The notes under the pieces: generated by a model
What the model was told of the DNA's origin: nothing
Database searches by the model: none
The model's input: only the letters and a program-made list of their open reading frames with translations
Program-made: the position numbers and the translations under genes
Shown here: in pieces, positions 4,200-48,043 of the stretch
Layout of the letters: each line of letters starts with the position of its first letter
Numbering within the stretch: the stretch's first letter is position 1
Assembly (NCBI GenBank): GCA_965198225.1
Contig: CBDAOY010000007.1
Span: 896,001 to 960,000 of the forward strand
Length of the DNA: 64,000 nt
Source: Terriglobia bacterium
GTDB lineage: Bacteria; Acidobacteriota; Terriglobia; 20CM-2-55-15
Reading direction: 5' to 3'

Positions 4200-4263
4200 A
4201 CCTAACGGACACTCGCTTAAGCTGCAGCGCGAAGCGCTGTCAGTCTTCAAGCGATTGCTAGGC
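4200..4263 (-). other. Integron attC site closing the second VOC cassette
   Basis: Minus strand reads GCCTAGC-aatcgcttgaagactgacagcgcttcgcgctgcagcttaagcgagtgtcc-GTTAGGT: an imperfect palindrome with R''/R' boxes just after the gene stop. R'' is GCCTAGC rather than GCCTAAC. Confidence 0.8.
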
Positions 4264-4276
4264 CGCTGCACCTTCT

Positions 4277-5095
4277 TTATCCGGGCACCACCGCCACATA
4301 CGCCCCCACTGGATCCTGAAGCACCGCATATGCGTACCCCCGATCGTTCGCCGGTGTCTCCTTGATGATCTTACCCCCTTCCTGCGGTACGCGACGGAGA
4401 CTTTCGGCGAGGTCGCCAACGGGGAGGTAGAGCATCCAGACAGGCGGCACATCCAGGTTCACGCCGCGGGCATGGCAGACGCCCGCCGCGGCGTTTCCAT
4501 CATCGCCGAGCATATTGTAGTCGGCGTAGCGCTTGCTCGCGTCGTCCATCTCGACGTCCTTCGCGCTCCAGCCAACGACCTGTCCGTAGAACTCACGGGT
4601 TGCCGTGGCGTCAGATACCGTCAAGTCGAGCCAGGCGACGCATCCCACAGGTGCCGACGGATCGCGCGATGCGGCGCCGTCTGATGCGGAAATTTCTTCC
4701 GTCGAAACGACTGGAATGATCCCGAACGTCGCCCCATTGGGATCGAGCAGCACCGCCCACTGGCTCTTTCCATCGTCGTCCTTGCCATGCATGAGCTCGC
4801 TCCCGCCCAGACCCAGGGCACGCTCAACACTCGTTGCGACATCAGCGACCTGAATGTGCGGCATCCATTGGAGAGGGAGCATCTCATGCTCCGTGCTACG
4901 CGCGCCCAATCCGATGATCGGCATGCCGAGGTTGTTCATTAGATCCTCGCGCCAAAGCGGGCTCTCACCCGTGCTGAGTACACGCGAGTAGAAGCGCACT
5001 TCACGTTCGTGTTCGGGAACGGCGATGTCGGCGCTGAGGACTCCGCCGACGCGTGGAGCAAAGGGGTCACTCATGGTTTGCGTCCTAATTGACAT
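4277..5095 (-). CDS. Two-domain VOC/glyoxalase family protein (integron cassette 2)
   Basis: WMPHIQVADV...DPNGATFGI and WLDLTVSDA...FYGQVVGW...DPVGA repeats. Confidence 0.85.
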   Translation of the reverse strand: MSIRTQTMSDPFAPRVGGVLSADIAVPEHEREVRFYSRVLSTGESPLWREDLMNNLGMPIIGLGARSTEHEMLPLQWMPHIQVADVATSVERALGLGGSELMHGKDDDGKSQWAVLLDPNGATFGIIPVVSTEEISASDGAASRDPSAPVGCVAWLDLTVSDATATREFYGQVVGWSAKDVEMDDASKRYADYNMLGDDGNAAAGVCHARGVNLDVPPVWMLYLPVGDLAESLRRVPQEGGKIIKETPANDRGYAYAVLQDPVGAYVAVVPG

Positions 5096-5236
5096 TGCGT
5101 GGGAGTGAAAGGCTCATTGGCCAGATATCGTACTTCAATGGTCATCGCGGCGACGATTGTCGAGGCAGGGGTGGAGACCTTCTCGAAGAATCGTGCCGCG
5201 TGAGGTCACACTTCGTGTCGGTTTGATCCGGGGTCG

Positions 5237-5368
5237 GCCTAACGACCAAGTTCACCGGGCACGCGGCCCAAGGCGAGTAAACGTTGAACAATCGGAAAAG
5301 CGTAAACGAAGGTGAAGACGTTGAAAAGCCGAAAGACGAGCGTGCTCCGGTGCAACGCCTTGTTATGT
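5237..5368 (-). other. Integron attC site closing the first VOC cassette
   Basis: Minus strand reads ACATAAC-aaggcgttgcaccggagcacgc...gcgtgcccggtgaacttggtc-GTTAGGC: canonical RYYYAAC-like/GTTRRRY cores with paired L boxes. Confidence 0.88.
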
Positions 5369-5385: not shown

Positions 5386-5913
5386 TCAATCTTGCCAGAA
5401 CCCACACTCGATGCCACCGTGGATAACAATCGCAAACATGCCATGTTCGGGAATCTCCATTGGTGGCATCGCGATTTCGGCTCCCGCTTTTGCGGCAGAC
5501 TCGACAGCTGCCTTGATGTCATCGACAAGCATATACGGTCGCACGACTGGTGTCTCCGTATCACGCAGTGGTCCGCGAATGCCGATCAAGCCGCCGCCAT
5601 CCAGTTTTGCAGTACGAGCACCACCAAAGTTGCCATCAGGTTCACTGAAGGTAATGCCATGGACTGTTGAGTATTGACCACACAAGGCATCCACTTCCGG
5701 TGTCACAATTTCAAGGTATTGGACTTTCATCGTTTCTCCTGCCGCAAGCGGATTTGATTCTCGGGTTTCATGGTTCAACTCATCATTGGATTCCGTCTGC
5801 TGAGCTTTATCGGTGCTGGATTGATTGCATCCGGTGATCAGCGTCACCAATCCCGGAGGAATCGCGAGTGCAAACCCGGTGCGGAGTACGTTACGACGAG
5901 TAAGTGAAGGCAT
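5386..5913 (-). CDS. VOC/glyoxalase family protein with possible Tat-lipoprotein leader (integron cassette 1)
   Basis: TRRNVL...ITGC leader. VOC domain runs MKVQYLEIVT...PYMLVDDI...GIECGFWQ. Confidence 0.8.
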   Translation of the reverse strand: MPSLTRRNVLRTGFALAIPPGLVTLITGCNQSSTDKAQQTESNDELNHETRESNPLAAGETMKVQYLEIVTPEVDALCGQYSTVHGITFSEPDGNFGGARTAKLDGGGLIGIRGPLRDTETPVVRPYMLVDDIKAAVESAAKAGAEIAMPPMEIPEHGMFAIVIHGGIECGFWQD

Positions 5914-5925
5914 GGAATTCTTTCC

Positions 5926-5990
5926 ACATAACTACTATTAGACGGAACTTCGTAGTAACACAAAACACGCAATCCCGCCCACCTAGCAAC
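5926..5990 (-). other. Probable attI site / start of the first cassette
   Basis: GTTATGT core (minus strand, 5932-5926) complements the ACATAAC at the end of cassette 1. It lies between the intI stop and the first cassette. Full extent uncertain. Confidence 0.55.
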
Positions 5991-6071
5991 ATCCCGCCAG
6001 TTGGGTGTAATCCATCCGAAACCAGCGGGATAAAGACAAAAATTGTATGAGCGCTATCCTGACCGATCCGG

Positions 6072-6340
6072 CTATCTATGTCCATCAGATTGGACCAATG
6101 AATCCGCCGGGCTCCGGACTCCGCCCGGGCCGCGGTTCAGCACGTGTGTGTAGACCATCGTTGTGCGAACGTCCTTGTGGCCGAGGAGGTCCTGGACGGT
6201 GCGGATGTCATATCCGTCCTCGAGCAGATGAGTCGCGAAGGAGTGTCTGAATGTGTGACAGGTGGCGGTTTCGCGATGCCGGACCGCGGGACGGCGCTGC
6301 GGACGGCCCTTTGGATTACCGACTCATGAAGGTGGTGGCG
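6072..6340 (-). pseudogene. intI: Integron integrase C-terminal fragment, frameshifted and 5'-truncated; absent from the ORF track
   Basis: Manual translation: [79 protein letters not shown]. Contains the IntI-specific RHH insertion and YTHV...SP end. Confidence 0.92.
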
Positions 6341-6341
6341 T

Positions 6342-6444
6342 GCGGATAAGCGGAATAAGCAGGGTCTGACGACTATGGTAGCACTGAGATTGTCGTCGCA
6401 TGGGTGTTATGTCAACCCGCGCGCGGCGGCAGGCCGTCGCGCGG
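6342..6444 (+). repeat. 103-bp dispersed junction element, copy 1
   Basis: GCGGATAAGCGGAATAAGCAGGGTCTGACGAC...GGCCGTCGCGCGG, near-identical to 8518-8620. Confidence 0.95.
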
Positions 6445-6599
6445 CGCCACGCATGTCGGGCTACGGCGGCAACATCGTTCAGCTGATGCCGAATGGCATG
6501 ATTGGATTTCGTTTTGGCAATGGCGGCTCTGTCCCGCTCGAGCGGATGACCGTTGTCGCGGACAAGATTCGTCCATTTGACGAATACCCCCGTCGCTGA
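6445..6599 (+). pseudogene. C-terminal gene fragment, possibly of a serine hydrolase/beta-lactamase-like protein
   Basis: PRMSGYGGNIVQLMPNGMIGFRF...* starts abruptly at the repeat boundary. Confidence 0.45.
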
Positions 6600-6660
6600 C
6601 AGCGCCCCTTTTGACTATGCTTTTATTAAACTATGCTAAATCGGTTGAGGATCAATCAAA

Positions 6661-7347
6661 ATGAGCGAAACGCGCTATCCGAACGAGAGCCCTGAATATC
6701 GCAAAGCCCGCGACGAACTGCTGGAAGCCGAGCAGGCACTGGTCGAACAAACCAGGGCCGTAGCCGAAAAACGCCGGCAACTTCCTCCTGGTGGAAAACT
6801 GAAGGAGGACTACGTATTCCAGTGGGCCAATGAAGGCAAGGTCGGGGAAGAAGTGCGCTTGTCCGAGCTGTTCGGCGACAAGAACACGCTTATTCTTTAT
6901 AACTTCATGTACGGCCCGGCCTGGGACAAGCCCTGCATGTCTTGCACAACGTTGATGGATGGTTTTGATCGTACCGCCTACCCGGTGTCACAGGATGCGG
7001 CATTCGTCGGAATTGCGAAGGCGCCCGCAGACATGATCCATGACTGGGCGTCGCATCGCGGCTGGACGAAAATCGGACTTGTGTCAGGCGCCAATACAAC
7101 ATACCAGGCCGACTACAACTGCCAGGGCGAGAACGACGACATGCAATGGCCGATCATGCACGTATTCCGGAAAGTCGACGGCGAGATCTACCACTTCTGG
7201 GGAACCGAATTACAGGGCAACCATGTCGATACCGTCTGGCCGTACTGGAACATGATGGACTTCACGCCCGAGGGCCGCCCGGACTACATGGCGCCCCCGC
7301 AGGATTTCACGTCAGAATTCCTGCAGAAGCACTACCTGGACGACTAG
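6661..7347 (+). CDS. DUF899 family thioredoxin-like protein
   Basis: RDELLEAE...RRQLP, LSELFG, YNFM and CMSC motifs. Confidence 0.9.
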   Translation: MSETRYPNESPEYRKARDELLEAEQALVEQTRAVAEKRRQLPPGGKLKEDYVFQWANEGKVGEEVRLSELFGDKNTLILYNFMYGPAWDKPCMSCTTLMDGFDRTAYPVSQDAAFVGIAKAPADMIHDWASHRGWTKIGLVSGANTTYQADYNCQGENDDMQWPIMHVFRKVDGEIYHFWGTELQGNHVDTVWPYWNMMDFTPEGRPDYMAPPQDFTSEFLQKHYLDD

Positions 7348-8399
7348 TCCGCGTCGAGTGGCGCGCAAGGTTCCAGGTCACTCATCGCAATGCCGCCGCG
7401 ATTACCAATTGTGACGGTGCCATAGCGCTCGGCAAAGATGTCCGGCAGTGGCCGGTCATTGGGCATGGATAACCATAGCCGCAACAGGTGGCGACGGTCT
7501 TCTATTTCCGGCCAGTCTTCAAAACCGGTTCGATCGTGCAGCAATCCGTGGTTGTAGACGAACTGCAGATCGCCCGGTTCCAGTTGCATGGACAAATTTA
7601 ACCGAGTGTCGTTGGCCAGATTGTCGAATAAGTCGAGTGCGTCAATGTGCTCGGGCGTCAGCTGCATGGCGTTCTCGAATCGTTGTGCCGAATCGATGTA
7701 CTGGCGCTGGTACATCACCGTCAGGAAGTCGTGATCCCAGGTTAAGACCGGAATCGAAAAGAACGGCTGCATGCCGTCGGGAATTTCGCCGCGCCGGTCC
7801 GTCGCTATCGGGTCGAACAACAGTTTGGCGAGGTCCGGGCGAGTTTCCAACATTTCGTTGTAGATGGTGATTGCGCTCACCAGGAGCGAATCACCGCCCT
7901 TTTTTGCCTTCTTCAAACATAGCAGGCCGACCACGTCGCTGGAATCGGTGTGAAAGGTCTGCCGTTCATTGGTCTGGTAAATCCGGACGTCCGGTGCGTC
8001 GCTATGCATGTCCAGGTCGCGTACGTGTCCAAGCACATGCCCCTTGGCGTTTTGCATGCGTGCGCTACCGAGATGTGCGCCAACGCCGTAAAACATGATG
8101 GCCGCCTGTTCGACTGTATATCTCTCGACCGGGAGTCGACGCAGCAATGCAAAGCCGATGCCTTCTACAAGCTGTTCAGCGAGTTCTTCCACCCTTGGTC
8201 CCAGTCCCGCGAGTGGAAAATTCTTCCTGTTAATTGAAACAATGGGAATAGCGAGCTTCGCGATGCTGCCTGCCGCCGCTTCAATCTCAGCGATCTCTGA
8301 ATCTCTCAGATCAATGATCCACTGGTCCGTATCTGCCCTGAGATCGGGCCCATACCAGGCCAGCGCACATTCCTGCCGTTCCGGTATTTGCATTGCCAT
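7344..8399 (-). CDS. TauD/TfdA family Fe(II)/2-oxoglutarate dioxygenase
   Basis: FHTD facial-triad motif, GGDS, NHGLLHDRT and RHLLRLWL. Start placed at the ATG after CAGGAAAG. Confidence 0.88.
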   Translation of the reverse strand: MAMQIPERQECALAWYGPDLRADTDQWIIDLRDSEIAEIEAAAGSIAKLAIPIVSINRKNFPLAGLGPRVEELAEQLVEGIGFALLRRLPVERYTVEQAAIMFYGVGAHLGSARMQNAKGHVLGHVRDLDMHSDAPDVRIYQTNERQTFHTDSSDVVGLLCLKKAKKGGDSLLVSAITIYNEMLETRPDLAKLLFDPIATDRRGEIPDGMQPFFSIPVLTWDHDFLTVMYQRQYIDSAQRFENAMQLTPEHIDALDLFDNLANDTRLNLSMQLEPGDLQFVYNHGLLHDRTGFEDWPEIEDRRHLLRLWLSMPNDRPLPDIFAERYGTVTIGNRGGIAMSDLEPCAPLDAD

Positions 8400-8517
8400 C
8401 TTTCCTGGTCGCGCTCCATGGTCGGAGAGGTGTTTCGCTCGTGACAATTATCCCGTCATTGACGCACAATGCCAGCGAAGCAGTCATTGCGAAGTTGATT
8501 GGGCACCTAATTACGTT

Positions 8518-8620
8518 GCGGATAAGCGGAATAAGCAGGGTCTGACGACTATGGTAGCACTGAGATTGTCGTCGTATGGGTGTTATGTCAACCCGCGCGC
8601 GGCCGCAGGCCGTCGCGCGG
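8518..8620 (+). repeat. 103-bp dispersed junction element, copy 2
   Basis: Direct repeat of 6342-6444 with about 2 mismatches. Confidence 0.95.
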
Positions 8621-9020
8621 TTGCCCGTACAGGATCGTCCCGTCTGTCTCCCAACTGATACCGAAGTTGTTGCCACCAGGCTCGGTGAGCAATTTGGGCG
8701 CACCTCCCGTGACGGCGACCTTCATCAATCGTGGGCGTGCAGCGTTTGATACGAAGTCCATATAAACAATCTGCTGCCCATCGGGTGAGAAAACAGGGTC
8801 TACCAAACTAGCATCACCAATTCCCGGTATCATCTGGGCTTCGAGTCCATCCATAGCCCGGAGGTAGAACCCGCCCGTGCCTCGGTACACGAACTGTCGG
8901 CCATCGGGTGAAATCGCAACAACTTGCCGCCCAAGATTTGAAAAAGTAATCCCCTCCGGCAGCTCGTAGTCAAAGCGGCTGACGGAGACAGGTTCTACAG
9001 GCCTCAGAGTCCACCCGCCA
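8621..9020 (-). pseudogene. Internal fragment of the TolB/PD40 beta-propeller of a Ser/Thr kinase
   Basis: AISPDGRQFVY, PVFSPDGQQIVY and KVAVTGGAP, similar to 36599-39217. Cut by the repeat on one side and IS6 on the other. Confidence 0.8.
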
Positions 9021-9815
9021 GGAATTGTCAACTTGGGCCCATAACTGCCAGACTGGTTCTATGAAATCGACTCGACCCCTCTATCACGGCCACCGTTACC
9101 CACGCGAAATCATCAGTCATGCAGTCTGGCTGTATCACAGATTCGGCATCAGCTTCCGAGATGTGGAAGATCGCCTCGCCGAACGAGGTGTAGTTGTGTC
9201 CTACGAGACAATCCGCCAATGGTGCGCGAAGTTCGGTCTCGAATATGTCAGGCGTCTCAAACGACAACAAGGTCGACTCGGAGATACATGGTTCCTGGAC
9301 GAAGTCTTCGTCACAATCAACGGTGAACGCCAATATCTTTGGCGCGCCGTGGATCAAGACGGTGACGTGATCGACATCCTCGTCCAGTCCCGACGCAATC
9401 GTCGTGCGGCGGAGCGCTTCTTTCGCAAACTCTTGAAGAATCAGGGAAAGGCGCCGTTCCGCCTCGTTACAGACAAGTTAAAGAGTTACGGCGCGGCGCT
9501 CCGGACGATCATGCCTTCGGTGAACCACGACACCGCACAATACGCGAACAATCGAGCAAAAGTCTCACACCAACCAACGCGACAGAGAGAACGACAAATG
9601 CGACGGTTCAAGTCTCCACGACAAGCCCAACTCTTCCTGTCGCTACATGGCATAGTTCTGAATCTTTTCCGATTGTCCAGGCACAGACTGAAGGCGGTTC
9701 ACCACCGTATGCTGCGAGCGCGTTCTTTTGCGACCTGGGAGGCGGTTACCGTGGGTTGATCGACCCGCGCCGATCCGGCACACGTTCGACCTTCGGACGG
9801 CAAGTTGACAGAACC
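9021..9815 (+). mobile_element. IS6 family insertion sequence
   Basis: Terminal IRs GGAATTGTCAACTTG / CAAGTTGACAGAACC flank a transposase. No TSD seen. Confidence 0.92.
9061..9759 (+). CDS. IS6 family DDE transposase
   Basis: YHGHRYPREII, WFLDEVFV, YLWRAVDQDG and VTDKLKSY motifs. NNRAKVSH has K where the catalytic E usually sits, so it may be inactive. Confidence 0.92.
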   Translation: MKSTRPLYHGHRYPREIISHAVWLYHRFGISFRDVEDRLAERGVVVSYETIRQWCAKFGLEYVRRLKRQQGRLGDTWFLDEVFVTINGERQYLWRAVDQDGDVIDILVQSRRNRRAAERFFRKLLKNQGKAPFRLVTDKLKSYGAALRTIMPSVNHDTAQYANNRAKVSHQPTRQRERQMRRFKSPRQAQLFLSLHGIVLNLFRLSRHRLKAVHHRMLRARSFATWEAVTVG

Positions 9816-9829
9816 CTTCGTGGCTATCG

Positions 9830-9900
9830 GTGTCGCGTATCGCCCGCGCAATCCGGAAACGACAGTCCTTCTACACGAAGTCGCCGACGGTTGGAAGACA
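9830..9900 (+). pseudogene. Possible N-terminal scrap of an IS91-like transposase
   Basis: YRPRNPETTVLLHEVAD resembles the Y-x-PR-x-PE-x-TVL start of IS91-like Zn-binding domains. Confidence 0.3.
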
Positions 9901-9941
9901 TCGCCCAGATCGGCGCGCTGGAATACGCTGACGGCAGGGCG

Positions 9942-12206
9942 TCAGTCGCGGTGCACGAAGACAAACTCGCCGCCCTCGTCGCCGGCCTGGTAGATCACGC
10001 CGTACTGTGGCGTGTTGGGGCTGTTGTTGATCACCGCCTGCCGGAAATCGGCGAACAGTGCGTCGGCGGTGATGTAGCGGCTCGAGTTGTCGGTTAGCCG
10101 GTCGGTCAGGTATTGCAGGAAAACGCTCTGGTCCGGAACCTGGGTGAGCGTGCCGCTGGTCATGGCCTTGCGGCTCGACAGCCGGGCCAGCTCGGTGATC
10201 GCCCGGTCCGCGCCCGCGAACGCCGTGCGCGTCTTGAAGATACCGCCGCTGAAGCAGGCGTCAGAGATCAGCAGCGTGTGCTTACTGTTGATGCCTTTGA
10301 TCAGGTCGCGGATGTCGCTGTTCGAGATCCATTGGGCGGGATTGTCCTGCGTGGCGTCGGCCGGCAGCCAGTAGCCCTGTCCGATCTGTTCGTTCCAGAT
10401 GCCGTGGCCGGCGAAGAAGACGATCACGCTGTCCTTGTCCGTGACCCTCAGGCCGAGCTGCTGAAGGCCACGGTAGATCTCGTCTTCGTCCGGATTCTCG
10501 AGCCGGGTGACGTTCTGGGCGTCGAAACGATAGCGCTGGACCAGTACGTTCTCGAGCCGCTGGGCGTCGGAGATGGGATGGTCCAGGTCGTTGACCGCGG
10601 GGTTCTCGTAGTCCTGCACAGCGATCAGGAGCGCGTGGTAGGTACCTTCGGGCAGCTCGGCCAGCGCGGACTCGTCGGCCGGCTTGAGCCCCCGGTCGCC
10701 ACCGGGAGTCGGGGCGTCGGGAGGCGGTGCGCCGCCGCTCTCGCGAACGACGATCAGACGCGCTTCTGCCCAGTTCTGGTGTCGCTGACGCGCACGCGGA
10801 TCTGGTTCTCGCCGAAGGCCAGGTTCACCTCCCGCCAGAATTCGCCGCGCGCCGAGACGTTGGCATCCTCGCCGTTGATCAGCACCTCGTAGATGCCGCT
10901 CTCGTCCCTGACCGCTCCGGCGACCACGACCCTCTTGGACGGCACGGTGATCCGATCGCCGCTTGAGCCTGGTCGGCTGAGCTCAATCTCCGGCGGCCTG
11001 ACGTCGTTGGTTCTCACGACCACCTCGTCTTCACTCGGCGACGGGATCTCGGGTCGTGTGGGACGCGGCTCGGCCTCCTCCGGGCTCACCGACGCGACCA
11101 GCGTCCGGAGATCGACCGCCTGGACCTTCGAGAAGATGACGTTGGCCCGGCTGGAGGCGGGATAGCGCGTGTAGCCGCGACCGGACTCGTGGAACCGGAA
11201 GACCATGTGGGCAGTGGATCCGCCGCGCGCCAGCTCGCGGTTGGGGATCGTGTACTCCCACACCGGATGCGGCTTCGCCGAAATGGCGGTGGCTTTGAAG
11301 CCGACCGCCAGTGAGGCGCCCGAGGAGAACCCTCCGCACCCGGTGGAAGAGCCCTCGGTAAGAAGGTACTGGGTACAGATGCTGGTGTAGGTGCCGTTCC
11401 TCCTACCGTAGCCGACATCGGTCCTCGCGGCGTCGATGATGCCGTTCTGGTTGACGTCGACCCGAATGCTGGCGAAGTCGAGCGCGGGGAACTGCCCGCG
11501 CAGGTTGTCGGAGGTATCGCCCACCGCCTCCAGCACGAAGGTGGTCTTGTCGCCCTCGTACTTGGCGATGACAACGTGGCGCTCGTTCTTCTCCAGTACC
11601 CGCTCGCTCGCCGTTGTCGGCGGCGTCAGCGAGGCGATGATGACCTTCGAGAAGATGACGTTGGCCCGGCTGGAGGCGGGATAGCGCGTGTAGCCGCGAC
11701 CGGACTCGTGGAACCGGAAGACCATGTGGGCAGTGGATCCGCCGCGCGCCAGCTCGCGGTTGGGGATCGTGTACTCCCACACCGGATGCGGCTTCGCCGA
11801 AATGGCGGTGGCTTTGAAGCCGACCGCCAGTGAGGCGCCCGAGGAGAACCCTCCGCACCCGGTGGAAGAGCCCTCGGTAAGAAGTACTGGGTACAGATGC
11901 TGGTGTAGGTGCCGTTCCTCCTACCGTAGCCGACATCGGTCGGCGTCGATGATGCCGTTCTGGTTGACGAACCCGAATGCTGGCGAAGTCGAGCGCGGGG
12001 AACTGCCCGCGCAGGTTGTCGGAGGTATCGCCCACCGCCTCCAGCACGAAGGTGGTCTTGTCGCCCTCGTACCTGGCGATGACAACGTGGCGCTCGTTCT
12101 TCTCCAGTACCCGCTCGCTCGCCGCCTGTACGCCGGGCGTTGCGAACAGAGCCAGGATCGCGGTCGCCAAGAGAAGCCGAGTCGCATTGGCGAGAGTCGA
12201 ACTCAT
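9942..12206 (-). pseudogene. Secreted caspase-family (peptidase C14) protein: signal peptide, two copies of an unknown ~160-aa domain, Ig-like domain, C14 domain; frameshifted in this sequence
   Basis: Track ORFs 11403-12209, 10754-11782 and 9942-10619 join across frameshifts. Catalytic motifs YHALLIAVQDY, FFAGHG and ISDACFSG are present. Confidence 0.8.
11123..12124. repeat. Near-identical tandem intragenic duplication (11123-11613 and 11643-12124)
   Basis: Two ~490-bp copies that differ mainly by small deletions in the 11643-12124 copy. Confidence 0.92.
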
Positions 12207-12263
12207 CAACAGGCGCGCCGCGCCTGCCTCGCAGGTTCGTATCGCCGGCCTTTCCCCTACATG

Positions 12264-12430
12264 CTAGTGCACCGCCGATGGCAAGGGCAAGGTAGCCGCC
12301 ATCGACGCCTTGCGCGAGGCGACCATGCCCTCCATCGGCACCAGGATCCGCCGGTGGGCGGCCGCCAACGCGTCCTCGGTCAGTCCGTCTTCTCCGGTCC
12401 GAGCAGCACCGCGGTCGGCTGAGTGGAGTT
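12264..12430 (-). pseudogene. Degraded C-terminal fragment of a SpoU/TrmH RNA methyltransferase
   Basis: EDGLTEDALAAAHRRILVPMEGMVASRKASMAA resembles SpoU E..GL...IPM.GMVESLNVSVAA. Confidence 0.5.
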
Positions 12431-12495
12431 CGACCGCCTCGTCGGACAGGTGCTGCCAGCAACGGCGGAACCGGATAATGGGCAGTCGAACCGTG

Positions 12496-13510
12496 CTACT
12501 CCCACACATCAAAATTCCCCGCCCAGATCGCATCGATGCGGCCTGTGCGCCAGCCCGCCACCTTGTCGCGTACCAGCGACGAGGGCAACTCCCGGTAGCG
12601 GCGGACGATCGCGGGCGCTTGGTTCTCGGATGCATTCAGCAGTTCGCGCGCGGTGCGAATCTGGTCTTTACGCCGTGGGCTCGGTGGTTCCGGCTGAGGA
12701 GCCACCACGACGCGCGCGCGCACACGGTCGAAACGCGATTCGTCGATCGGCGATTCCATGACGTGCAGGCCCGATTCACGGGAGAGGATGGCGTAGCTGC
12801 CGAAGCCGCCGAGCGAGAAGATTACGCCGTCGGGGCGCTCCCCTCCCCCGACTGGTAGCTCCGTCAACCGCATGCGGCGGCGCCTGGCCCACTGCCGGTA
12901 CATGTCCACGGTGTGTGCCAGGAACTCCCGGGCCTGGGGATGATCCATGTCCTCGCGCAGCAAGCGAACGCCGAGGAACGCCTGGGTGGGACGCTCGCTG
13001 TCCAGGTCCTCGATCCCCTCGTCCAACACGTAGAGCTTCTCCGCTATCCGCGCGGTGGGTGACGGGCTGTGACCGTTCTGCCGTCGGCGCTCCGCGAGGG
13101 AGTTGAGCGCTGCTGCTGCGGACTCGATACGATCCATGAGCTCGATCCGATGCAGCACCAGAAAACGGTCCTCCCGGTTCCAGAACCCGTCGCCGTTGAT
13201 CTCCTTAAGGCCCTCTTCCTTTGCTGCACGCCAGGGCTCGTCGTCCAAACGCATGACGATATCTTTCACCCGCGATGTGAGAAACGCCTGCTCGTTCGCC
13301 GCGCCGGTGGCGTGCAGCATTAGGTGCGTAACCGAGAGCGATGCCGCAGATGCCTCTGCACCCGCAATCTCCGGAGGCGGTTCCGCTTCGGCGTCGGGAT
13401 CGATGAACTCCACACGCAGGGTGTTCCCATCGCTGCGCACGAACAGGAACTGCTCACCCTCCGGCGCGCGGTTCTCGACGATCGTGATCGACAAAGGCGC
13501 AAGGAGGCAA
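12496..13510 (-). pseudogene. C-terminal part of a Clp-like AAA ATPase / PCRF (release-factor-like) fusion; ATPase half missing
   Basis: Begins at LLAPLSITIVE (end of a Clp D2-small-like domain). Then DMYRQWA, ILSRESGLHV, IVRRY and AGNFD, like RF2 PCRF, without GGQ. Confidence 0.65.
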
Positions 13511-14525
13511 CGAGAGCTGTGCTTGACGATCTGAAGCGTAGATCGAACACTTTTGAGCGGTGAGAATGCGCTAACAGTGGAAACAAGTGCGACTCCATTG
13601 CTTGTTGCCCGATGTACATTACTGGTGCTTTATCTTTCCGAAGACGAGAAGCAAGGGGTTATAGTATCCCACGCTTGGGCACATCCAGGTTGTTCCGGAC
13701 GTAGCGTTGGTCCAAAACGCTCAGGCCGTTCGTAGCCAGGGGCGATCTTCCATCCGTGACGTTGTTAAGGTGATCGGGACAAGCAACTTCAGTTTCCTTA
13801 GCCAAGACGGACACTGAGGGACTCAGTAGCGAGTTCAATCTCGCGTGCGGCAGTCGAGCCCTTCCAGAGCCGTTGCTCTCGCAGTACGCGCTTGGTCACT
13901 CGAGGGTTCACGGACCAAACTATAGCGGCTACCTGTGGGTCACGGCCGATAAGGTATTCGAGTTAGGAAGGGCGAGGTGACGTGAGCTCTCGGGCTTGCT
14001 GATTACTTGGCCAGTGGCATGAGGCGATCATTGACCATCAGACCTGAGAAGCCGTGCCGCCACGGCCAGCACGCCAAAGAATTGAGTTCGCGGGCCCGAC
14101 ATTTTTAACAGAGCAACTCCGAGTTGGTTGCGTATTCCGGCGAAATCCGCCAGTGATTCCGAAGTGAAAGCCGCCACGATTCCGGGCAAAGCATCCACCC
14201 GTCGGAGCGAAGCGACGCTGGGGAGGGTTATCATTTCCGAAGTGGATGGCTTCGGTCAAACAAGAACCGCGTTTGTGGTGTAATTTTCATCTAACAATTC
14301 CTCCTCGAATGTGAATGAATCGCCGGGCCTGTGTGTAAGTGTGAATGGGCTGCGGGTTGTGCGGCCCATTCAAGCCGGTGTGGGAATCCGCGCGTTGTGT
14401 AGCGGATTTCCATAGCTGCGGCACTTTCCACAGGCCGATGCCTCTGTGCTGTTCGCAAGGCAGAAAGTTCCGACCGCGGCGCGGCCTGGGGTCGGAATCT
14501 CTGCGGAGCGGTGGTCCACTGAAGG

Positions 14526-15296
14526 CTATCCCTCATTCGGATCAGGCTCCTTTCTAGCCCGGCTCGGGCCGTTTTTGGACTTTCGCATCGAAGCCCCATC
14601 CAGTTCGATGCGATGCGCATTGTGGACCAAGCGGTCGAGGATGCTATCGGCCAGTGTGGGATCCCCGATCTGATCGTGCCAGTCGGTGATGGGCAACTGA
14701 CTGGTGAGGATCGTGGATCGGGTGGCGTAACGGTCGTCGCAGATTTCCAGGAAGTCGCGGCGTTCGGTGTCGGCGAGCGGCGCGATGGCCCAATCATCGA
14801 CAAGGAGAACGTCGATTCGGGCAATGCGGTCCAGCAGTTTGACAAAGCTGCCGTCCGCACGGGCCACGGCTAGGTCGCGCAGCAATCGCGGCGCGCGGGT
14901 GTAGAGTGCGGTGAAGCCGTCGCGAACGGCTTTGTGGCCCAGCGCGCAGCCGAGAAAGCTTTTTCCGACGCCACAGGGTCCGGTGATGATCACGTTCTGA
15001 TGCTGGGTAACCCAGTCACAGGCGGCCAGGCTGCGGATCAACCCGCGGTCCAGGCGGCGCGGATGCCGGTAGTCGATGTCTTCGACGGCGGCGTTGATTT
15101 TAAACCGGGCGGTCTTCAAGCGACGGGCGAGCGCCCGGTTTGCCTTCCAATCCCATTGCCGATCCACCAGCAAGGCCAGACGTTGCTCGAAACTGAGCCG
15201 GAGGATTTCGGGGTCTTCCATCTGCTGGCCCACCGCCTCGGCCATGCCCGTGAGTCGCATCGCATGGAGTTTTTCCAGTGTGGGTTGCATTAGCAT
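14526..15296 (-). CDS. istB: IS21 helper ATPase
   Basis: MLMQPTLEKLHAMRL start, GPCGVGKS Walker A, LLVDDW Walker B, DRLVHNAHRI. Confidence 0.95.
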   Translation of the reverse strand: MLMQPTLEKLHAMRLTGMAEAVGQQMEDPEILRLSFEQRLALLVDRQWDWKANRALARRLKTARFKINAAVEDIDYRHPRRLDRGLIRSLAACDWVTQHQNVIITGPCGVGKSFLGCALGHKAVRDGFTALYTRAPRLLRDLAVARADGSFVKLLDRIARIDVLLVDDWAIAPLADTERRDFLEICDDRYATRSTILTSQLPITDWHDQIGDPTLADSILDRLVHNAHRIELDGASMRKSKNGPSRARKEPDPNEG

Positions 15297-16852
15297 GACG
15301 GTCCCTCCGGAGTCTTGAAGTAATCGGTTCCACGGATATTGGGGTGTTGAATGGGCGGCCGGACCGGACCGGGTTCCGGCTCGGCCTGCCGATCCAGACC
15401 GGTGCCGAGGATCGACCGGACGCTTTGATAGGAGCAGGCATCGAGTCGGCAGGCGCGGGCCGCGGCGGCTTCCAGCCGATCCGGCCCATAGCTTTGACCC
15501 AGACGAAGGATGCCCAAACAGCTGCGGAAGCCTTGTTCGGGATGGCGGCGCGATTGAAGCACGCGCGCCACCAGTTGGGAGGTGAACGGACCGGTGCTCG
15601 ATGCCCAGCGGATGAGCCGTTCCGGTGTCCATTCCAGGTAGCGTTGATGCGCGGCGGGCCGATGCGCATCGACGGTGGTGTGCGCCCCCGCCTTCGAGCT
15701 GCGCGGGTGACTGGCTACACGCTGGCCCCGATGAAAGATCTCCACGGTCAGGGCCGTGTAGCGCACGTCCAACTGCTGATGCACCAGGGCGTAGGGAGCG
15801 CTGTAATAGTGGCCCTCGACCTCGATGTGGTAATCGATGTGGACGCGCGCTTTCTTCCATTCGGCGAACGCGTAGCGGTCGGCTGGCAAGCGGCCCAGCG
15901 CCGGCCGGTCGAGCGTCTCGAACCGGGTGCGGCGGCTGCCCTCGAGCTTGCGAAATCTGCGGGCATTGAGCCGGTCCAACAGTTCCGCGATCGCGGCGTT
16001 CAGATCGGCCAGGTTGAAGAACGTGCGTTTGCGCAGGACGGCCAGGATCCACCGTTCCACCAAAAGCACACCCGCCTCGGCCTTCGCCTTGTCCCGGGGT
16101 TTGCGCACGCGCGCCGGAATGACAGCGACGCCGTAATGAGCCGCCATCTCCTGATAGGTCGGATTCAGGTCCGGTTCGTACCGGCAGGGACGGCTGACCG
16201 CGCTCTTCAAGTTGTCGGGGACAACGATCTCGGGCACGCCCCCAAAAAACTCCAATGCACGGATGTGAGAGCCAATCCAACAGGGCAGCTTCTGGCTCCA
16301 GGTCGCTTCGGCGAACGTGTAATTGCTGGCGCCCAGGACCGCAACGAAGATGGACGCGTCCTGAATGGCTCCCGTCTTCGAATCGACGATCGGGACGGTG
16401 TCTCCCGCATAGTCGACGAACAGTTTTTCTCCGGCGCGGTGTTCTTGCCGCAGAACCCGATCGAGCTTCCGGGCCCATTGCCGGTAGAGTTCACAGAACC
16501 GACTGTAGGAATAACCGTCCGGGTTCGACTGCCGGTACTCCTGCCAGAGCAACTGCAACGTGACATGCTTGTCGCCCCGGAACTCTTCGTGGATCGTCGC
16601 CCAATTCGGCGCCGGGCGGTCCGGAGTCAGCGTCACCCGCGGTGGGAACAGCTGCGTCTCCAATCCCGATTCATCCAGTCCTTCGGGCAACGGCCATCCG
16701 AGCCCCGCCACCTCGGCCCGGCGGACATAATCGGCGACTGTGCTGTGGTTGATCGAACAACTGCGGGCGATCTGGCGGTGACCTAACCCCAGCCCGAACT
16801 TGAGTCGTAGAACTTCTTTGATCTTTCGCATGGACAATCTCTCTGCAGGCAC
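15290..16852 (-). CDS. istA: IS21 transposase
   Basis: MRKIKEVLRL HTH, FVDYAG, VPDNLKS and PRDKAKAE. Confidence 0.95.
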   Translation of the reverse strand: MPAERLSMRKIKEVLRLKFGLGLGHRQIARSCSINHSTVADYVRRAEVAGLGWPLPEGLDESGLETQLFPPRVTLTPDRPAPNWATIHEEFRGDKHVTLQLLWQEYRQSNPDGYSYSRFCELYRQWARKLDRVLRQEHRAGEKLFVDYAGDTVPIVDSKTGAIQDASIFVAVLGASNYTFAEATWSQKLPCWIGSHIRALEFFGGVPEIVVPDNLKSAVSRPCRYEPDLNPTYQEMAAHYGVAVIPARVRKPRDKAKAEAGVLLVERWILAVLRKRTFFNLADLNAAIAELLDRLNARRFRKLEGSRRTRFETLDRPALGRLPADRYAFAEWKKARVHIDYHIEVEGHYYSAPYALVHQQLDVRYTALTVEIFHRGQRVASHPRSSKAGAHTTVDAHRPAAHQRYLEWTPERLIRWASSTGPFTSQLVARVLQSRRHPEQGFRSCLGILRLGQSYGPDRLEAAAARACRLDACSYQSVRSILGTGLDRQAEPEPGPVRPPIQHPNIRGTDYFKTPEGPSC

Positions 16853-17143
16853 GTGTTCTCCCTCCTTGACTAAAAGGGAAAACAGTACCCGCGGGTTGTC
16901 CAGCGTCGCTATCGGCCTCTTCGATTCCGGAGCATCTCATCCACCATTCCGACCGGCACCCCAAAACTGGATGGCTTCGGGTCGGAATCCCTGGATGCTT
17001 TCCCTCGGAATCGCTGGATGACTTCGATCGGAATCAGTGGGGGCTTTCGATCGGAATCCCTGGATGACTTGCTCTGGAATACGCAGTTGGCCGCGAACCT
17101 CCGCGTACTGTAGTTGAACCGCGAAGGACCTTGTCTGAATTCC

Positions 17144-17245
17144 CCGCGCGACAGCCTGCGGCCGCGCGCGGGTCGACATAACGCCCATACGACGACAATT
17201 CAGCCCTACCATAGTCGTCAGACCCTGCTTGTGCCGCTTATCCGC
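17144..17245 (-). repeat. Dispersed junction element, copy 3 (inverted, more diverged)
   Basis: Reverse complement reads GCGGATAAGCGGCACAAGCAGGGTCTGACGACTATGGTAGGGCTGAATTGTCGTCG...GGCTGTCGCGCGG. Confidence 0.93.
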
Positions 17246-17247
17246 AG

Positions 17248-17378
17248 GTGAGCGCCCTGGACATCGTGACGTGGGCCGGAGCATGTGCCACTCTTCTCGC
17301 CGCCTCTATCGCGGCGGGATACTTACCTGGGAACGCGCTGCTCGGACCGACCCGAAGGCGGCACTCAGAGCCGAGTAG
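17248..17378 (+). pseudogene. C-terminal scrap of an ABC/FtsX-like (ADOP-type) permease
   Basis: VSALDIVTWAGACATLLAASIAAGYLPG/RAARTDPKAALRAE* across one frameshift. Confidence 0.7.
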
Positions 17379-17621
17379 CCCCGGCCCTAGCGCCAACGTG
17401 CAGGTCCGTCAGGCGATAGGTCCTGCCTTGTCGCCTCGCGTTTAGGGATGGTCAAGCAGTGCACGGCTATTTGGCCAAGTGAGTTTAGTTGCTCCGTAAC
17501 ATTGACCCGGGTTCCCAAGCTGACGACGAAGCCTTCAGGCGTTCGCAAATCCTGTGGCTCTCACGGAGGACTTGCTGTTTGTGTTGCGGTAACGCACTCG
17601 GGACACTGGGCCGGGCGGGTT

Positions 17622-17783
17622 TCAGCCCGTCCTCTGCTCGAAGGCCCTCATGAATTCGACCAGCGTGTCGACGCCTTCTTCGGGTAGCGCGTTGTAGATC
17701 GAAGCACGCATTCCTCCGACCGAGCGGTGACCTTGAGGCCGTCGAGGTCGAGGCCCTCCGCGCTCCCTTGCTGCACGAACATG
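17622..17783 (-). pseudogene. serC: C-terminal scrap of phosphoserine aminotransferase
   Basis: [40 protein letters not shown] is the SerC C-terminal signature. Confidence 0.85.
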
Positions 17784-17784
17784 A

Positions 17785-17867
17785 GCGGATAAGCGGAATA
17801 AGCAGGGTCTGACGACTATGGTAGCACTGAGATTGTCGTCGTATGGGTGTTATGTCAACCCGCGCGG
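17785..17867 (+). repeat. Dispersed junction element, copy 4 (83 bp; 20-bp deletion in the terminal hairpin)
   Basis: Identical to copy 2 up to AACCCGCGCG. The deletion lies between two CGCGCG copies. Confidence 0.93.
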
Positions 17868-17963
17868 GGATTCAAGGCAGGATGTTCCGGGCAGGCGGCA
17901 GATTCAAGGCAGTTTTCCGTCTTGCGGAGACACACCCGTCCCGCGGCGTCGTGACGTCGACGT

Positions 17964-18274
17964 TCAGAAGGCGTCCATCTGGCAGTTGTAGTCGGAAGAG
18001 GCCGGCGCCAGAGGCGGGGCGCGGGAAGGCAGGCCCAGGCACTCCAGGATTCTTACTGTGACCGTGGGCGGACGAATTGCTGCAAGGATTTTCATCCTTC
18101 CGCCGCAATGTTCACACTGAAGAACGTCCACCAGGAAGACACGTTTCATCAACTCCGCCCAGGTGTAATTGCGATTGCGCGCAGATGATTCCGCGCAGGG
18201 CTCAGCCGCAACAGTCAGCTCGGCTGATTGTTGGGCAGTAGGCTGCGGTTTCACCTCGGTCTCCCTGCGATTGT
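17964..18274 (-). pseudogene. C-terminal fragment of an IS91-like transposase, cut by IS21 no. 2
   Basis: WAELMKRVFLVDVLQCEHCGGRMKILAAI...ILECLGLP motif. Confidence 0.75.
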
Positions 18275-18389
18275 TATCCTCGGCGGTCACCCAAAACCGG
18301 CCAATGGTGGTCACCTGAAAACCGGCCAACGAACATAGATAAGCCCGGGACATTGACACCGACGGGAAGCCGAAACAGGCTCCGTCGGC

Positions 18390-20030
18390 ATGAGCAATGT
18401 CTTGAGCACAGAAAAGAGAGAGCAAGTTGTTGCATTGGGGCGGCTTGGATGGCCGCTGCGTCGGATCGAACAGACCACCGGCGTGCGTCGTGAGACGGCC
18501 AGTGCGTATCTGAGAGCGGCCGGAATCCCCATTCGGCCGCCCGGGAGTTGGGGCCGGCGACCGGCAAAACCGGCCAACGAGGTGACCACCGACCCGGACG
18601 GCGTAAATGGTGTCGTTGAGGGGTTTGGCGGTTCCGATACTTCAAAACCGGCCAACGAAGTGACCACCGACCCGGAGGCCGAGAATCCGGTCTCGGCAGA
18701 GTCGTCGGCTCCCCCTCCAAGCCCACCGTCGGGCAGTTCCTGCGAGCCGTACCGGGAGACCATCCAACAGGCGCTGGAGCGTGGCCGCAACGCGATGGCG
18801 ATCTGGCAGGACCTGGTCACGGATCACGGTTTTGTCGGCAGCTACGAATCGGTCAAGCGTTTCGTTCGCAAACTCCGGGGAGTGCGATCCCCGGAAGCGG
18901 TCGGAATCATCCAGACCGGAGCTGGAGAGGAAGCGCAGGTCGACTACGGGACCGGACCGATGGTCCGGGATCCGAAGACGGGCAAGTACCGACGGACGCG
19001 GCTGTTCGTGATGACGTTGGGCTACAGCCGCAAATCGGTCCGGCTGCTGACGTTCAAGTCCAGTTCCCGCATCTGGGCCCAGTTGCACGAGACCGCGTTC
19101 CGCCGACTCGGCGGCACTCCCCGCCTCATCGTGCTGGATAACCTGCGCGAAGGCGTGATCGTCCCGGACCATTACGACCCCACCCTGAATCCGTTGTTTC
19201 GAGATGTCCTGACCCATTACGGCGTGGTGGCCATGCCATGCCGGGTGCGCGATCCAGACCGCAAAGGCAAAGTCGAATCCGGTGTCGGGCACGCCCAGAA
19301 GACCCCATTGAAGGGACAGCGCTTCGAGAGCCTCGACCAGGCCCAGGGGTATCTGGATCGCTGGGAAGTCCGATGGGCCGACACCCGCATCCACGGCACG
19401 ACCAAGCGGCAGGTGGCGGCCATGTTCGCCGAAGAGAAACCATCTCTTAAGCCGCTGCCGATCGAACCGTTTCGCTATTACCAATTCGGTGAACGTGTCG
19501 TCCATCTCGACGGTTGCGTCGAAGTCGAAGCCGCCTATTACAGTGTACCGCCGGGCTGGATCGGACGGGGTGTCAAGGTCCAGTGGGACACGCTTCACGT
19601 CCGGATCCTGGACCCAAACACCTATCCACTCCTCCGCGAGCATGTCCGCCAGAAGCGGGGTGGATACCGTGTCCGTGCTGAAGACAACCCGAAGAAAACC
19701 CCGTTAACGACGGTGCAACTGCTGGCCCGAGCCCGCCGCGCTGGCACCCACATCGGCACACTCTGTGACGCCATTCACCGCCGACAAGGGGAAGCTGCGG
19801 TCCGCCGCATCCTGGGTGTGCTCTCCCTGGCCAAGAAGTACGGTGTCTCCGCCGTGGAGGATGCTTCGGCTGCGGCACTGGAACTCCACGTCTACGAGTA
19901 TCGTTTCGTCCGCCGCTATCTGGAGCGGCGACCTCCACTCGCCCTGCGTCAGGTCGATCCTCTCATTCGCGAACTGACTCAGTATCGCGATCTCATCAAC
20001 CTCAAAATCCAGGAGCAGGAACACTCATGA
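18390..20030 (+). CDS. istA: IS21 transposase
   Basis: EAQVDYG, VLDNLRE and PDRKGKVE motifs. Confidence 0.93.
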   Translation: MSNVLSTEKREQVVALGRLGWPLRRIEQTTGVRRETASAYLRAAGIPIRPPGSWGRRPAKPANEVTTDPDGVNGVVEGFGGSDTSKPANEVTTDPEAENPVSAESSAPPPSPPSGSSCEPYRETIQQALERGRNAMAIWQDLVTDHGFVGSYESVKRFVRKLRGVRSPEAVGIIQTGAGEEAQVDYGTGPMVRDPKTGKYRRTRLFVMTLGYSRKSVRLLTFKSSSRIWAQLHETAFRRLGGTPRLIVLDNLREGVIVPDHYDPTLNPLFRDVLTHYGVVAMPCRVRDPDRKGKVESGVGHAQKTPLKGQRFESLDQAQGYLDRWEVRWADTRIHGTTKRQVAAMFAEEKPSLKPLPIEPFRYYQFGERVVHLDGCVEVEAAYYSVPPGWIGRGVKVQWDTLHVRILDPNTYPLLREHVRQKRGGYRVRAEDNPKKTPLTTVQLLARARRAGTHIGTLCDAIHRRQGEAAVRRILGVLSLAKKYGVSAVEDASAAALELHVYEYRFVRRYLERRPPLALRQVDPLIRELTQYRDLINLKIQEQEHS

Positions 20031-20782
20031 ATCTGATCGAACTCCAGCGGGCTCTCCGACAACTCCGGCTCGGCGGCATTGCCGAGGTGTTGGAAACACG
20101 CCTCCACCAGGCCCAGACCGAAGCCATGGCGCCGATCGACTTGGTCTCTCGTCTGGTCTCGGATGAACTGGACCGTCGCAGCATCCGGTTGTTGGAACGG
20201 CGTCGGAAACAGGCCCGGTTCCGCGATCCCCAGAAGACGCTCGACTCCTTCGACTTTACTTTCAACAAGAAGATGAATCGTAGTCTGGTCTTCGACCTGG
20301 CGACGGGCGCCTTCATCTCCAGGCACGACGATGCCTTGTTTCTCGGTCCTCCTGGCACCGGCAAGAGTCATCTGGCTCAGGCCATCGGCTTGGCTGCGAT
20401 TGAGCAGGGCTATCGGGTCGTCTACCGTGAAACTCATGCGCTTCTCGACGACATCGCCGAAGCCACCATTGACGGTACCCGAAAGGAGTGCATGGAAGCT
20501 TTGGCGACGGTCCCGCTGCTGATCATCGACGATCTGGGGATGCGGAAGCTTCCTCCCACTGCAGCAGAGGAACTCCTCGAGATCGTGATGCGACGCTATG
20601 AACGGACCAGTACGTTACTGACATCGAATCGACCCGTCCAAGACTGGGGAAAACTACTGGGTGATAGCGCCGCCGTCACAGCCATGCTGGACCGGCTGCT
20701 CCATCACGGCCACATCCTCAAATGCGGCCCTCGGAGTTGGAGGACTAAAACGGGCTTGCCGAGTCCAGTCCCAAAGAGGTAG
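20027..20782 (+). CDS. istB: IS21 helper ATPase
   Basis: GPPGTGKS, LIIDDLG and LDRLLHHG motifs. Confidence 0.95.
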   Translation: MNLIELQRALRQLRLGGIAEVLETRLHQAQTEAMAPIDLVSRLVSDELDRRSIRLLERRRKQARFRDPQKTLDSFDFTFNKKMNRSLVFDLATGAFISRHDDALFLGPPGTGKSHLAQAIGLAAIEQGYRVVYRETHALLDDIAEATIDGTRKECMEALATVPLLIIDDLGMRKLPPTAAEELLEIVMRRYERTSTLLTSNRPVQDWGKLLGDSAAVTAMLDRLLHHGHILKCGPRSWRTKTGLPSPVPKR

Positions 20783-20838
20783 AACAACACCGTCCCGGGC
20801 CATCCCCGTTGGCCGGTTTTGAAGTGACCACTGAGGTA

Positions 20839-23926: not shown

Positions 23927-23931
23927 GAGGG

Positions 23932-23957
23932 ATGTGCGGTCATAGACCGCACCTACA
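23932..23957 (-). repeat. GTAG-type REP
   Basis: ATGTGCGGTCATAGACCGCACCTACA between the kinase and the regulator. Confidence 0.85.
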
Positions 23958-23963
23958 CCTGGT

Positions 23964-47910: not shown

Positions 47911-48043
47911 TTGACAACCCCTCTCATAGAACATGCATGTAAAGTCGACTTGAACGAAGCCGCTGGCGCGGCGGACGCTACGCGTGTGCTGAGCGAAGAG
48001 TGATGAGCCCCCGATAGAGTGTGAGCCTCACAAGGAGGCTCAC

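Follow-up and report, generated by a model that had tools for sequence, protein, structure and literature searches.

The window analyzed here, a stretch of 64,000 nucleotides (nt) from a Terriglobia bacterium (assembly GCA_965198225.1, contig CBDAOY010000007.1, positions 896,001 to 960,000; G000:C7:896001-960000, where G000 is the genome itself and other G numbers are sister genomes), carries four copies of a 103-nt hairpin repeat and raises the question of what this repeat is and how it came to mark joins between unrelated genes. An initial annotation, made from the sequence alone, had proposed a non-autonomous gene-shuffling system that matches no known family. We conclude instead that the repeat is probably the oriIS end of an ISCR-like element of the IS91 family of insertion sequences (ISs), mostly surviving as solo copies without a transposase. 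The identity as an ISCR-like oriIS end, taken alone, is very probable. The family is thus already known and the member itself is new. A literature search found no description of the element or of solo-oriIS arrays, which is no proof that none exists.

All four copies, three direct and one inverted, lie where the initial annotation had placed them. A 37-nt piece of the repeat, searched with up to three mismatches, has exactly four sites in the window and no match in 100 shuffles. Also present as described are GCGG at both ends, a tandem GCGGA(A)TAAG motif, a GACGAC/GTCGTC stem and a GC-rich hairpin with one bulged T. The repeat carries two predicted separate hairpins, the GC-rich one being the second (hairpin 2), of which 20 nt are deleted in copy 4. 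The features of a miniature inverted-repeat transposable element (MITE), terminal inverted repeats and a target duplication, are absent from the repeat, in agreement with the earlier description, and no direct repeats were found in the flanks of 13 own-genome copies and 30 array copies. Rfam (E ≤ 1, window positions 1-22000) had no match to the repeat. The initial annotation missed that the genome has ~13 loci with the repeat (12 rows in one search; 15 BLAST rows at E < 1 in another), that relatives carry it too, and that copies 3 and 4 extend past position 103 into the interior of an IS. At one of the own-genome loci, on contig C6, a 1.3-kb IS that has inverted repeats of its own and is flanked by a 9-bp duplication interrupts the repeat.

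That IS is preserved whole in sister genomes. G016 and G017 together have five such copies, whose homology begins at the first bases of the 103-mer and extends over ~2086 bp, so that the 103-mer forms the outer ~100 bases of a ~2.09-kb element, a longer version with an HUH enzyme of the kind for which a search had been suggested. On the displaced strand, the target (..DGCG) is followed by GATAAG and the tandem half-sites, hairpin 1, a TGTCG..GTTATGT core and hairpin 2, where the 103-mer ends; then come ~96 nt, the transposase gene on the other strand, and terIS. In the whole copies the open reading frame (ORF), of 500 aa, ends 96 nt from position 103 on the strand opposite to the repeat. Its product matches Pfam Zn_Tnp_IS91 (63 bits) and Y2_Tnp (97.5 bits) and is thus of HUH type, in line with the earlier suggestion that the repeat is an HUH-type substrate. 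The best NCBIfam model is ISCR_clade_Ia ("ISCR element clade Ia"; 414 bits, E 7e-124, residues 5-475; model cut-off 925 bits), and the IS91 equivalog NF033538 scores 86 bits against a cut-off of 125. In tblastn comparisons with plasmids, the protein is 40.9% identical to the transposase of ISCR1 and 42.5% identical to that of ISVsa3, with 94% of the protein covered. In an alignment with another IS91-type transposase of the own genome, the HxH motifs correspond, and an arginine stands here where the partner has the first tyrosine of its Y..Y pair. ISCR enzymes have one tyrosine.

In the own genome, window copy 4 and the copies at C4:34573 and C6:545712 have another 400-600 bp beyond position 103 in common, and the opposite strand of this shared DNA encodes the C-terminus of an IS91-type transposase, with matches to Y2_Tnp. 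Window positions 17782-18274 are 80-82% identical to the whole IS copies of G016 and G017. The transposase remnant of copy 4 comprises the last ~103 codons of the gene (17967-18275, minus strand); Pfam had no match to this ~103-codon remnant alone, and remnants elsewhere in the genome that match it reach Y2_Tnp. The ~58 nt beside copy 3 are, as judged from sequence, diverged interior of the same IS. Copies 3 and 4 are ordinary decayed IS copies cut by IS21-family elements, and the repeat is not part of a separate gene-shuffling system.

The association of repeat and gene extends to relatives. For 80 transposase loci, one genome per species, we searched for the oriIS end with an nhmmer profile of the 103-mer, which replaced a strict regular expression that had recovered only 7 in 58 loci. 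At E ≤ 1e-20 the profile matched in 9 of the 80 loci, and all nine have a match on the opposite strand immediately past the end of the gene (in locus L108 there are two more, at other places). These nine are the closest relatives (at least 79% transposase identity), and weaker matches occur at the same place in a few others. By their record titles, the loci come from Terriglobia metagenome-assembled genomes (MAGs), with one Blastocatellia MAG for a weak match. Relatives at 52-64% identity have a diverged version of the repeat at the same place, which keeps a GATA(A/G)G..AATAAG tip and a TGTCG..TTATGT core. The oriIS tips of ISCR1 and ISVsa3, taken from two plasmid records and compared by eye without a statistic, read TATAGGAAG(T/A)ATAAAC in the same place and orientation as the tip of the repeat, and the first ~20 bases of the repeat resemble them. 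The relatives at 52-64% identity appear to bridge the two.

As described in PMC13181058, the ends of IS91-family elements are unlike, oriIS lies downstream of the gene, and that of IS91 and IS801 contains two imperfect subterminal palindromes; 82 bp of it suffice, the target tetranucleotide abuts it, no target duplication arises and the bottom strand moves. Position and anatomy of the 103-mer seem to fit each of these points. The closest likeness is to ISCR1 and ISCR2 (= ISVsa3), with which the element shares the transposase architecture (41-43% identity over 94% of the length), an oriIS downstream of the gene with two direct half-sites (TATAGG..TATAAA in ISCR, GATAAG..AATAAG here), the lack of inverted repeats and target duplication, and diverse unrelated DNA beside its ends. 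ISCR1 lies beside class 1 integrons (PMC13393415), and here a remnant of an integron integrase gene (intI) lies beside copy 1. The element differs from ISCR in its model score, which at 414 bits is below the 925-bit cut-off, in its hosts (Terriglobia-titled MAGs rather than Proteobacteria), in its long conserved two-hairpin oriIS module of 103 nt, in having dozens of transposase-less oriIS copies per genome in arrays of up to 30, and in that no resistance genes were seen.

The element resembles IS91 and IS801 in its two-palindrome oriIS, of which ~82 bp are sufficient in those elements (PMC13181058); the abutting target tetranucleotide and the one-ended transposition of neighboring DNA set out in the same source may be shared as well. 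Its transposase is only weakly similar to that of IS91 proper, its apparent target bias is DGCG and not CTTG/GTTC, and its joints are mostly not simple insertions. For IS801, PMC3189936 reports miniature forms: right-end pieces 229, 360 and 679 nt long, each ending at a tetranucleotide, were made and inserted in vivo and account for about a quarter of the trapped IS801 events. The short form here, by contrast, is 100-103 nt long and ends at a hairpin foot. Helitrons are eukaryotic and have a Rep-helicase protein. They are rolling-circle transposons, as the present element is expected to be, and the 3′ hairpin of Helraiser, described in PMC4778049 as a terminator that can be bypassed with transduction of flanking DNA, offers a working analogy for hairpin 2 and for the captured DNA.

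We surveyed 34 genomes from 11 genera of the family. The repeat is present in 17 of these genomes and in 6 genera, with 24-28 scored matches in several, and the transposase gives 0-5 matches per genome at E ≤ 1e-100. Most copies are without a transposase, and in this sense the description as non-autonomous holds. From the own genome and retrieved sister loci we assembled 91 distinct copies, 76 of which align from position 1, and traced in 90 where homology to the whole IS ends. The end falls before position 98 in 11 copies, within 98-104 in 41 (at 102-103 in 33 of these) and within 108-147 in 15, several of the latter being chance extensions past 103 as judged by eye; in the remaining 23 the homology runs on for at least 120 nt. 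About seven copies break at +33 to +35, after GGCGG. The outer edge is equally sharp, with GCG nearly fixed and the base before it a C in only 1 of the 76 copies.

Copies commonly lie at joins of unrelated DNA and not in simple insertions, as the initial annotation had stated. Its further claim that the flanking genes are mostly cut within the coding sequence does not extend to the family. An open coding frame reaches the edge of the repeat in 9 of 50 flanks on the left and 13 of 50 on the right, compared with 628 and 673 of 1000 random positions (63-67%); therefore, most solo copies lie between genes or where a gene ends. In 10 of 36 cases, the end of a gene on the same strand is no more than ~30 nt from position 1.

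The copies form arrays of a single orientation. A 120-kb stretch of G032 has 30 matches (28 full or near-full and two short 3′ fragments), all on the plus strand, across ~110 kb and at a spacing of 0.5-11 kb. A simple gene call based on GC content at third codon positions places 50 genes on the plus and 41 on the minus strand over the 120 kb, with up to 6 per unit. G030 has 12 copies in 40 kb, all on the minus strand. Counted by hand among the matches listed (150 of 243), neighbors within 10 kb in six sister genomes have the same orientation in 23 pairs and the opposite orientation in one. The own genome has three pairs of each kind; window copy 3 is a member of two of the opposite pairs, and the third is made up of two fragments on C6. 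Seven clusters among the matches listed include a transposase-bearing copy (two in G017 and one each in G016, G022, G023, C4 of the own genome and the window), and in these the solo copies lie on its oriIS-outer side. A replichore-wide orientation bias was considered and rejected, as the orientations are interleaved along the single-contig genome G017 (by eye, among the matches listed). A second multi-copy repeat, of ~184 bp, occurs at ~23927-24110 of the G030 array (L066) and at several places of the G032 array; it is MITE-like, has an apparent 7-bp duplication and is unrelated to the 103-mer.

The arrays of G030 and G032 are shared at 95-98% identity, and one difference between them is informative. 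G030 has an extra repeat with 3.48 kb, placed directly before a resident repeat, with ..GACG|GATAAG as its left joint. At the same place in G032 the gene continues to its stop codon, and these 148 nt are absent from G030. It follows from this comparison that G030 gained a block headed by a repeat, next to the outer edge of the resident copy and with loss of target DNA, and that bases 1-3 of the repeat come from the target. Those of window copy 1 (GCG) are probably target-derived as well. No clean empty site was found for the outer joint.

We infer every catalytic step of the route that could have produced these patterns, and draw it by analogy with IS91, IS801 and ISCR. The HUH transposase would bind the folded hairpins and nick the outer edge (DGCG|GATAAG), and the displaced strand beginning with the 103-mer would be peeled off towards terIS. 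Strand transfer would at times end early at the foot of hairpin 2, giving a solo oriIS; the sharp break at this foot suggests that the hairpin can act as an early terminator. The remaining ori, without a proper terminator, would carry downstream DNA in one-ended transposition, and repeat-led blocks like that gained by G030 would result. New units would tend to land beside a resident oriIS, giving one-orientation stacks. On whether the solo ends originate by early termination, we find the case evenly balanced; stacking at a resident oriIS as a rule is a tentative proposal that we think less likely than not to hold. With similar reserve, we raise the possibility that the complete, transposase-less oriIS modules are portable "start" signals that would take up downstream DNA, would arrive mainly at the outer side of an oriIS already in place and would in this way build one-directional multi-gene arrays of up to 30 units in 110 kb.

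Several observations weigh against this account or parts of it. The own genome holds no whole element, and its best transposase copy covers residues 2-381 and has a stop codon, so activity there is unproven. On the terIS side, the edge is not sharp: the copies agree up to ..GTGTAACGCC(G) and then diverge, with a short palindrome in three copies only. Two IS copies of G016 that are otherwise 99.5% identical have ~10 differences in the first ~55 nt of the 103-mer, so that conversion or exchange inside the repeat is needed. (Each of the two G016 versions of these ~55 nt matches a G017 copy, as might be expected if exchange or conversion had its breakpoint close to hairpin 1.) Neither hairpin shows a compensatory change, with 84.8% of cells paired compared with 84.6% in shuffles, and the DNA fold is only mildly better than that of shuffles (z of -1.6 and -2.6 for a window copy, +0.4 and -0.3 for a G032 copy). 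In the G032 array only two units have a recognizable transposase remnant, and these lie inside the array and not only at one end.

Further difficulties concern the inner joint. The four bases before the 102|103 break read CGCG, in which C is the avoided base at the outer target. When the repeat is removed in silico, an open coding-like frame runs across the joint in 1-3 of 50 solo copies, at any offset; because early termination predicts simple insertions, the solo joints weigh against it. One position-103 joint could be compared with uninterrupted homologues. For a G023 copy (L047), homologues of the post-103 DNA in G021 and G025 run at least 190 nt past the joint without a repeat, and DGCG is absent at the break in both, contrary to prediction. 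Position-103 joints therefore look non-specific on the partner side. Finally, the authors of PMC3189936 judged most genomic IS801 fragments to be products of reorganizations. Because of the failed DGCG prediction, the CGCG context, the lack of covariation and this caution, we place more confidence in the identity of the repeat than in early termination, and more in early termination than in stacking.

The same observations leave some room for a different origin of the solo ends. It is possible, if not probable, that the repeat is the oriIS end of an ISCR-like element and that its solo copies arose by ordinary deletions or hairpin-provoked illegitimate recombination, with clusters formed by homologous recombination and local duplication. 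Such an origin would account for the lack of a target motif on the partner side of the one joint tested, for the scatter of the other breakpoints (the 11 before position 98 and the ~7 at +33 to +35) and for further differences between G030 and G032, which include replacements that do not always end at repeat edges and a duplicated flank-plus-repeat; the judgment of the IS801 authors points the same way. It is harder to reconcile with about half of 90 independent joints lying within 2 nt of each other, which is difficult to obtain via random deletion, with an outer joint of the same sharpness that shows a bias in the base at -1, or with the 23 to 1 orientation bias among the matches listed, which is unexpected from homologous recombination alone.

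We consider it unlikely that the 103-mer is an independent genomic repeat that served as the target of an ISCR-like IS inserting at 103|104, the IS then starting at GGGATTCAAGG. Solo copies exceed whole ISs ten-fold or more, the break at 102-103 is sharp, two near-identical IS copies diverge clearly over the first ~55 nt of the repeat, and in the own genome identity is 98% in the shared interior and ~91% in the 103-mers beside it, all of which speak for a target. Against this, it is the tip of the 103-mer and not the post-103 sequence that resembles the oriIS tips of ISCR1 and ISVsa3 and is placed like them. Every close relative with a C-terminus has the repeat, and beside the genes of distant transposase relatives the corresponding position is taken by a diverged form of it; repeat and gene thus evolve together.

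A third reading takes the 103-mers as attC-like sites of a chromosomal integron, or of an integrase-less attC cluster, with the intervening DNA as cassettes. An attC site folds, by pairing of the inverse core sites at its two ends, into a single long and imperfect hairpin that has extrahelical bases. The arrays here do resemble those of integrons, integrase-less clusters included, in that structured repeats of ~100 nt in the same orientation separate accessory gene blocks, at 0.5-11 kb; a bulged hairpin is present, copy 1 abuts the intI remnant, and the gene ends found close to the repeat start (10 of 36) would fit as well. The ends of the repeat are, however, not complementary, it has no inverse core sites, and it forms two separate hairpins and not a single long one, so the analogy with attC drawn in the initial annotation fails on the defining features, the partner integrase among them. 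A search for integron integrase (TIGR02249, E ≤ 1e-40) gave no match in the copy-rich genomes G032, G030 and G016, and the only full-length intI of the own genome is on another contig with no 103-mer near. Integron cassettes are mostly single promoterless ORFs of one orientation. Genes between copies here lie on both strands, several per unit, and the repeat is physically part of an IS91-type element, an HUH transposon. We therefore regard an attC origin as highly improbable. The full-length integrase match itself (C6:488798-489706, 446 bits) has one in-frame TGA.

An assembly chimera, adapter or linker has next to no probability, as the repeat occurs in 17 of 34 family genomes, single-contig ones included, and in a coding IS, the region is present in runs of several studies, and no point in favor of an artefact was found, short-read contigs breaking inside the repeat as at any repeat. 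The assembly was checked with Logan contigs of public runs, the best-matching of which may include the source sample. Contigs of two runs cross the joint 6444|6445 with more than 31 nt on each side (X7 record 24, X5 record 9). Others stop 29-30 nt inside the repeat and do not bridge it (X3 record 1 and X7 record 23, 5500-6370; X3 record 2 and X5 record 10, 6690-8546; X5 record 11, 8591-9255). Among the contig matches listed, none bridges the joints around copies 3 and 4.

The coordinates of the four copies and their neighbors are collected in Table 1.

Table 1. Repeat copies, remnants and other insertion sequences between positions 6072 and 20830 of the window
Feature	Position	Strand	Remarks
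Integron-integrase C-terminal remnant, ~90 codons, frameshifted	6072-6341	-	Cut at outer edge of copy 1
Copy 1, putative solo oriIS module	6342-6444	+	Ends at hairpin 2 foot, position 103
DNA between copies 1 and 2	6445-8517		ORF tail; DUF899, 6661-7347 (+); TauD, 7344-8447 (-)
Copy 2, putative solo oriIS module	8518-8620	+	98% identical to copy 1; ends at position 103
PD40 beta-propeller gene fragment	8621-9016	-	Frame enters copy 2 and stops inside hairpin; other end cut by IS6-family element
IS6-family element	9017-9817	+	DDE_Tnp_IS240 transposase, 9025-9759
Second IS21-family element	14129-17085	-	IstA, 15290-16852, IstB below; 17-nt terminal inverted repeats; cuts interior of copy 3
Copy 3	17086-17245	-	Putative oriIS module, 17144-17245, then ~58 nt of predicted, diverged IS interior, 17086-17143
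serC 3′ remnant	17614-17784	-	Cut exactly at outer edge of copy 4
Copy 4	17785-18275	+	Putative oriIS module, 17785-17869; IS interior; transposase 3′ remnant
IS21-family element	18276-20830	+	IstA, 18390-20030; IstB, 20027-20782; cuts transposase gene of copy 4

The flanks that the initial annotation had assigned to intI, TauD, a kinase-type propeller (the PD40 fragment) and serC held on checking. The intI remnant is 71-77% identical to the genome's other IntI copies and 48% identical to recombinases of other IS91-type elements. The start of the TauD gene is 70 nt left of copy 2, and nothing in the same-genus genomes matches the stretch from copy 1 to copy 2 at the nucleotide level. Pfam searches of the short flanks (the serC tail, and an FtsX/ADOP-like tail and a "hydrolase" tail as judged from sequence) returned nothing usable, so serC was identified by comparison with the intact paralogue on contig C9, to which the remnant is homologous right up to the joint with copy 4. 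Of this second serC copy, only residues 271-307 survive anywhere in the genome. The IS21-family element that cuts copy 4 has more than 15 near-identical copies in the genome. With at least five IS types, the window is a graveyard of such elements. Its 5-18 kb part has no orthologous counterpart in three same-genus genomes, and therefore offers no empty sites for the window copies.

Other IS91-type elements are present in the genome. Window positions 47945-50450 (plus strand) hold a different IS91-family element of ~2.5 kb, in which a tyrosine-recombinase gene lies upstream of a Y2 transposase gene. It has at least 8 near-identical copies in the genome and a ~77% relative around 39.1-40.1 kb, and its right tip ends ..CTTATCGG, reminiscent of the tip of the 103-mer. 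On C6 (641985-642937 and 643575-645669), two fragments of the 103-mer (positions 72-100 and 1-43) in opposite orientation flank ~880 bp, and the 1-43 fragment is ~640 nt downstream of a two-gene IS91-type element (a recombinase and a 398-aa transposase). A different IS91 subfamily may thus share the tip of the 103-mer.

Two further features of the window were noted. The glyoxalase-domain gene at 4202-5246 is 98% identical to a stretch of G016, where its counterpart is located among IS91-type elements, and the neighboring DNA is ~83% identical or unmatched; this suggests that a 1-kb module may have been exchanged recently. At 11123-12124, a repeat-domain gene (Glucodextran_B match) contains a tandem duplication of ~519 bp (97-100% identical), and contigs of two public runs skip 511 bp within it, so that strains seem to differ by one repeat unit.

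IS91 and ISCR elements are textbook examples of gene-capturing rolling-circle transposons. To our knowledge, work on ISCR elements has dealt almost entirely with clinical Proteobacteria, in which they carry resistance genes, and direct demonstrations of their mobility are rare. The element described here, a distant relative of ISCR from soil Acidobacteriota, provides a natural record: its oriIS is well delimited, whole copies are few and solo origins number in the dozens, the breakpoints fall precisely at the foot of a hairpin, and foreign DNA is stacked over long stretches in one orientation. Annotation gains an explanation for a repeat absent from Rfam. What may be new is how numerous the solo origins are in Terriglobia and that they stack in one direction. 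If the proposed role of the solo modules is true, the arrays would be integron-like accretion islands, with an HUH rolling-circle transposase as their builder in place of a tyrosine recombinase. The stacking rule, if real, would provide a defined substrate of ~100 nt for testing ISCR cleavage and termination, and would reveal a way in which gene islands are put together by rolling-circle transposons in non-clinical settings.

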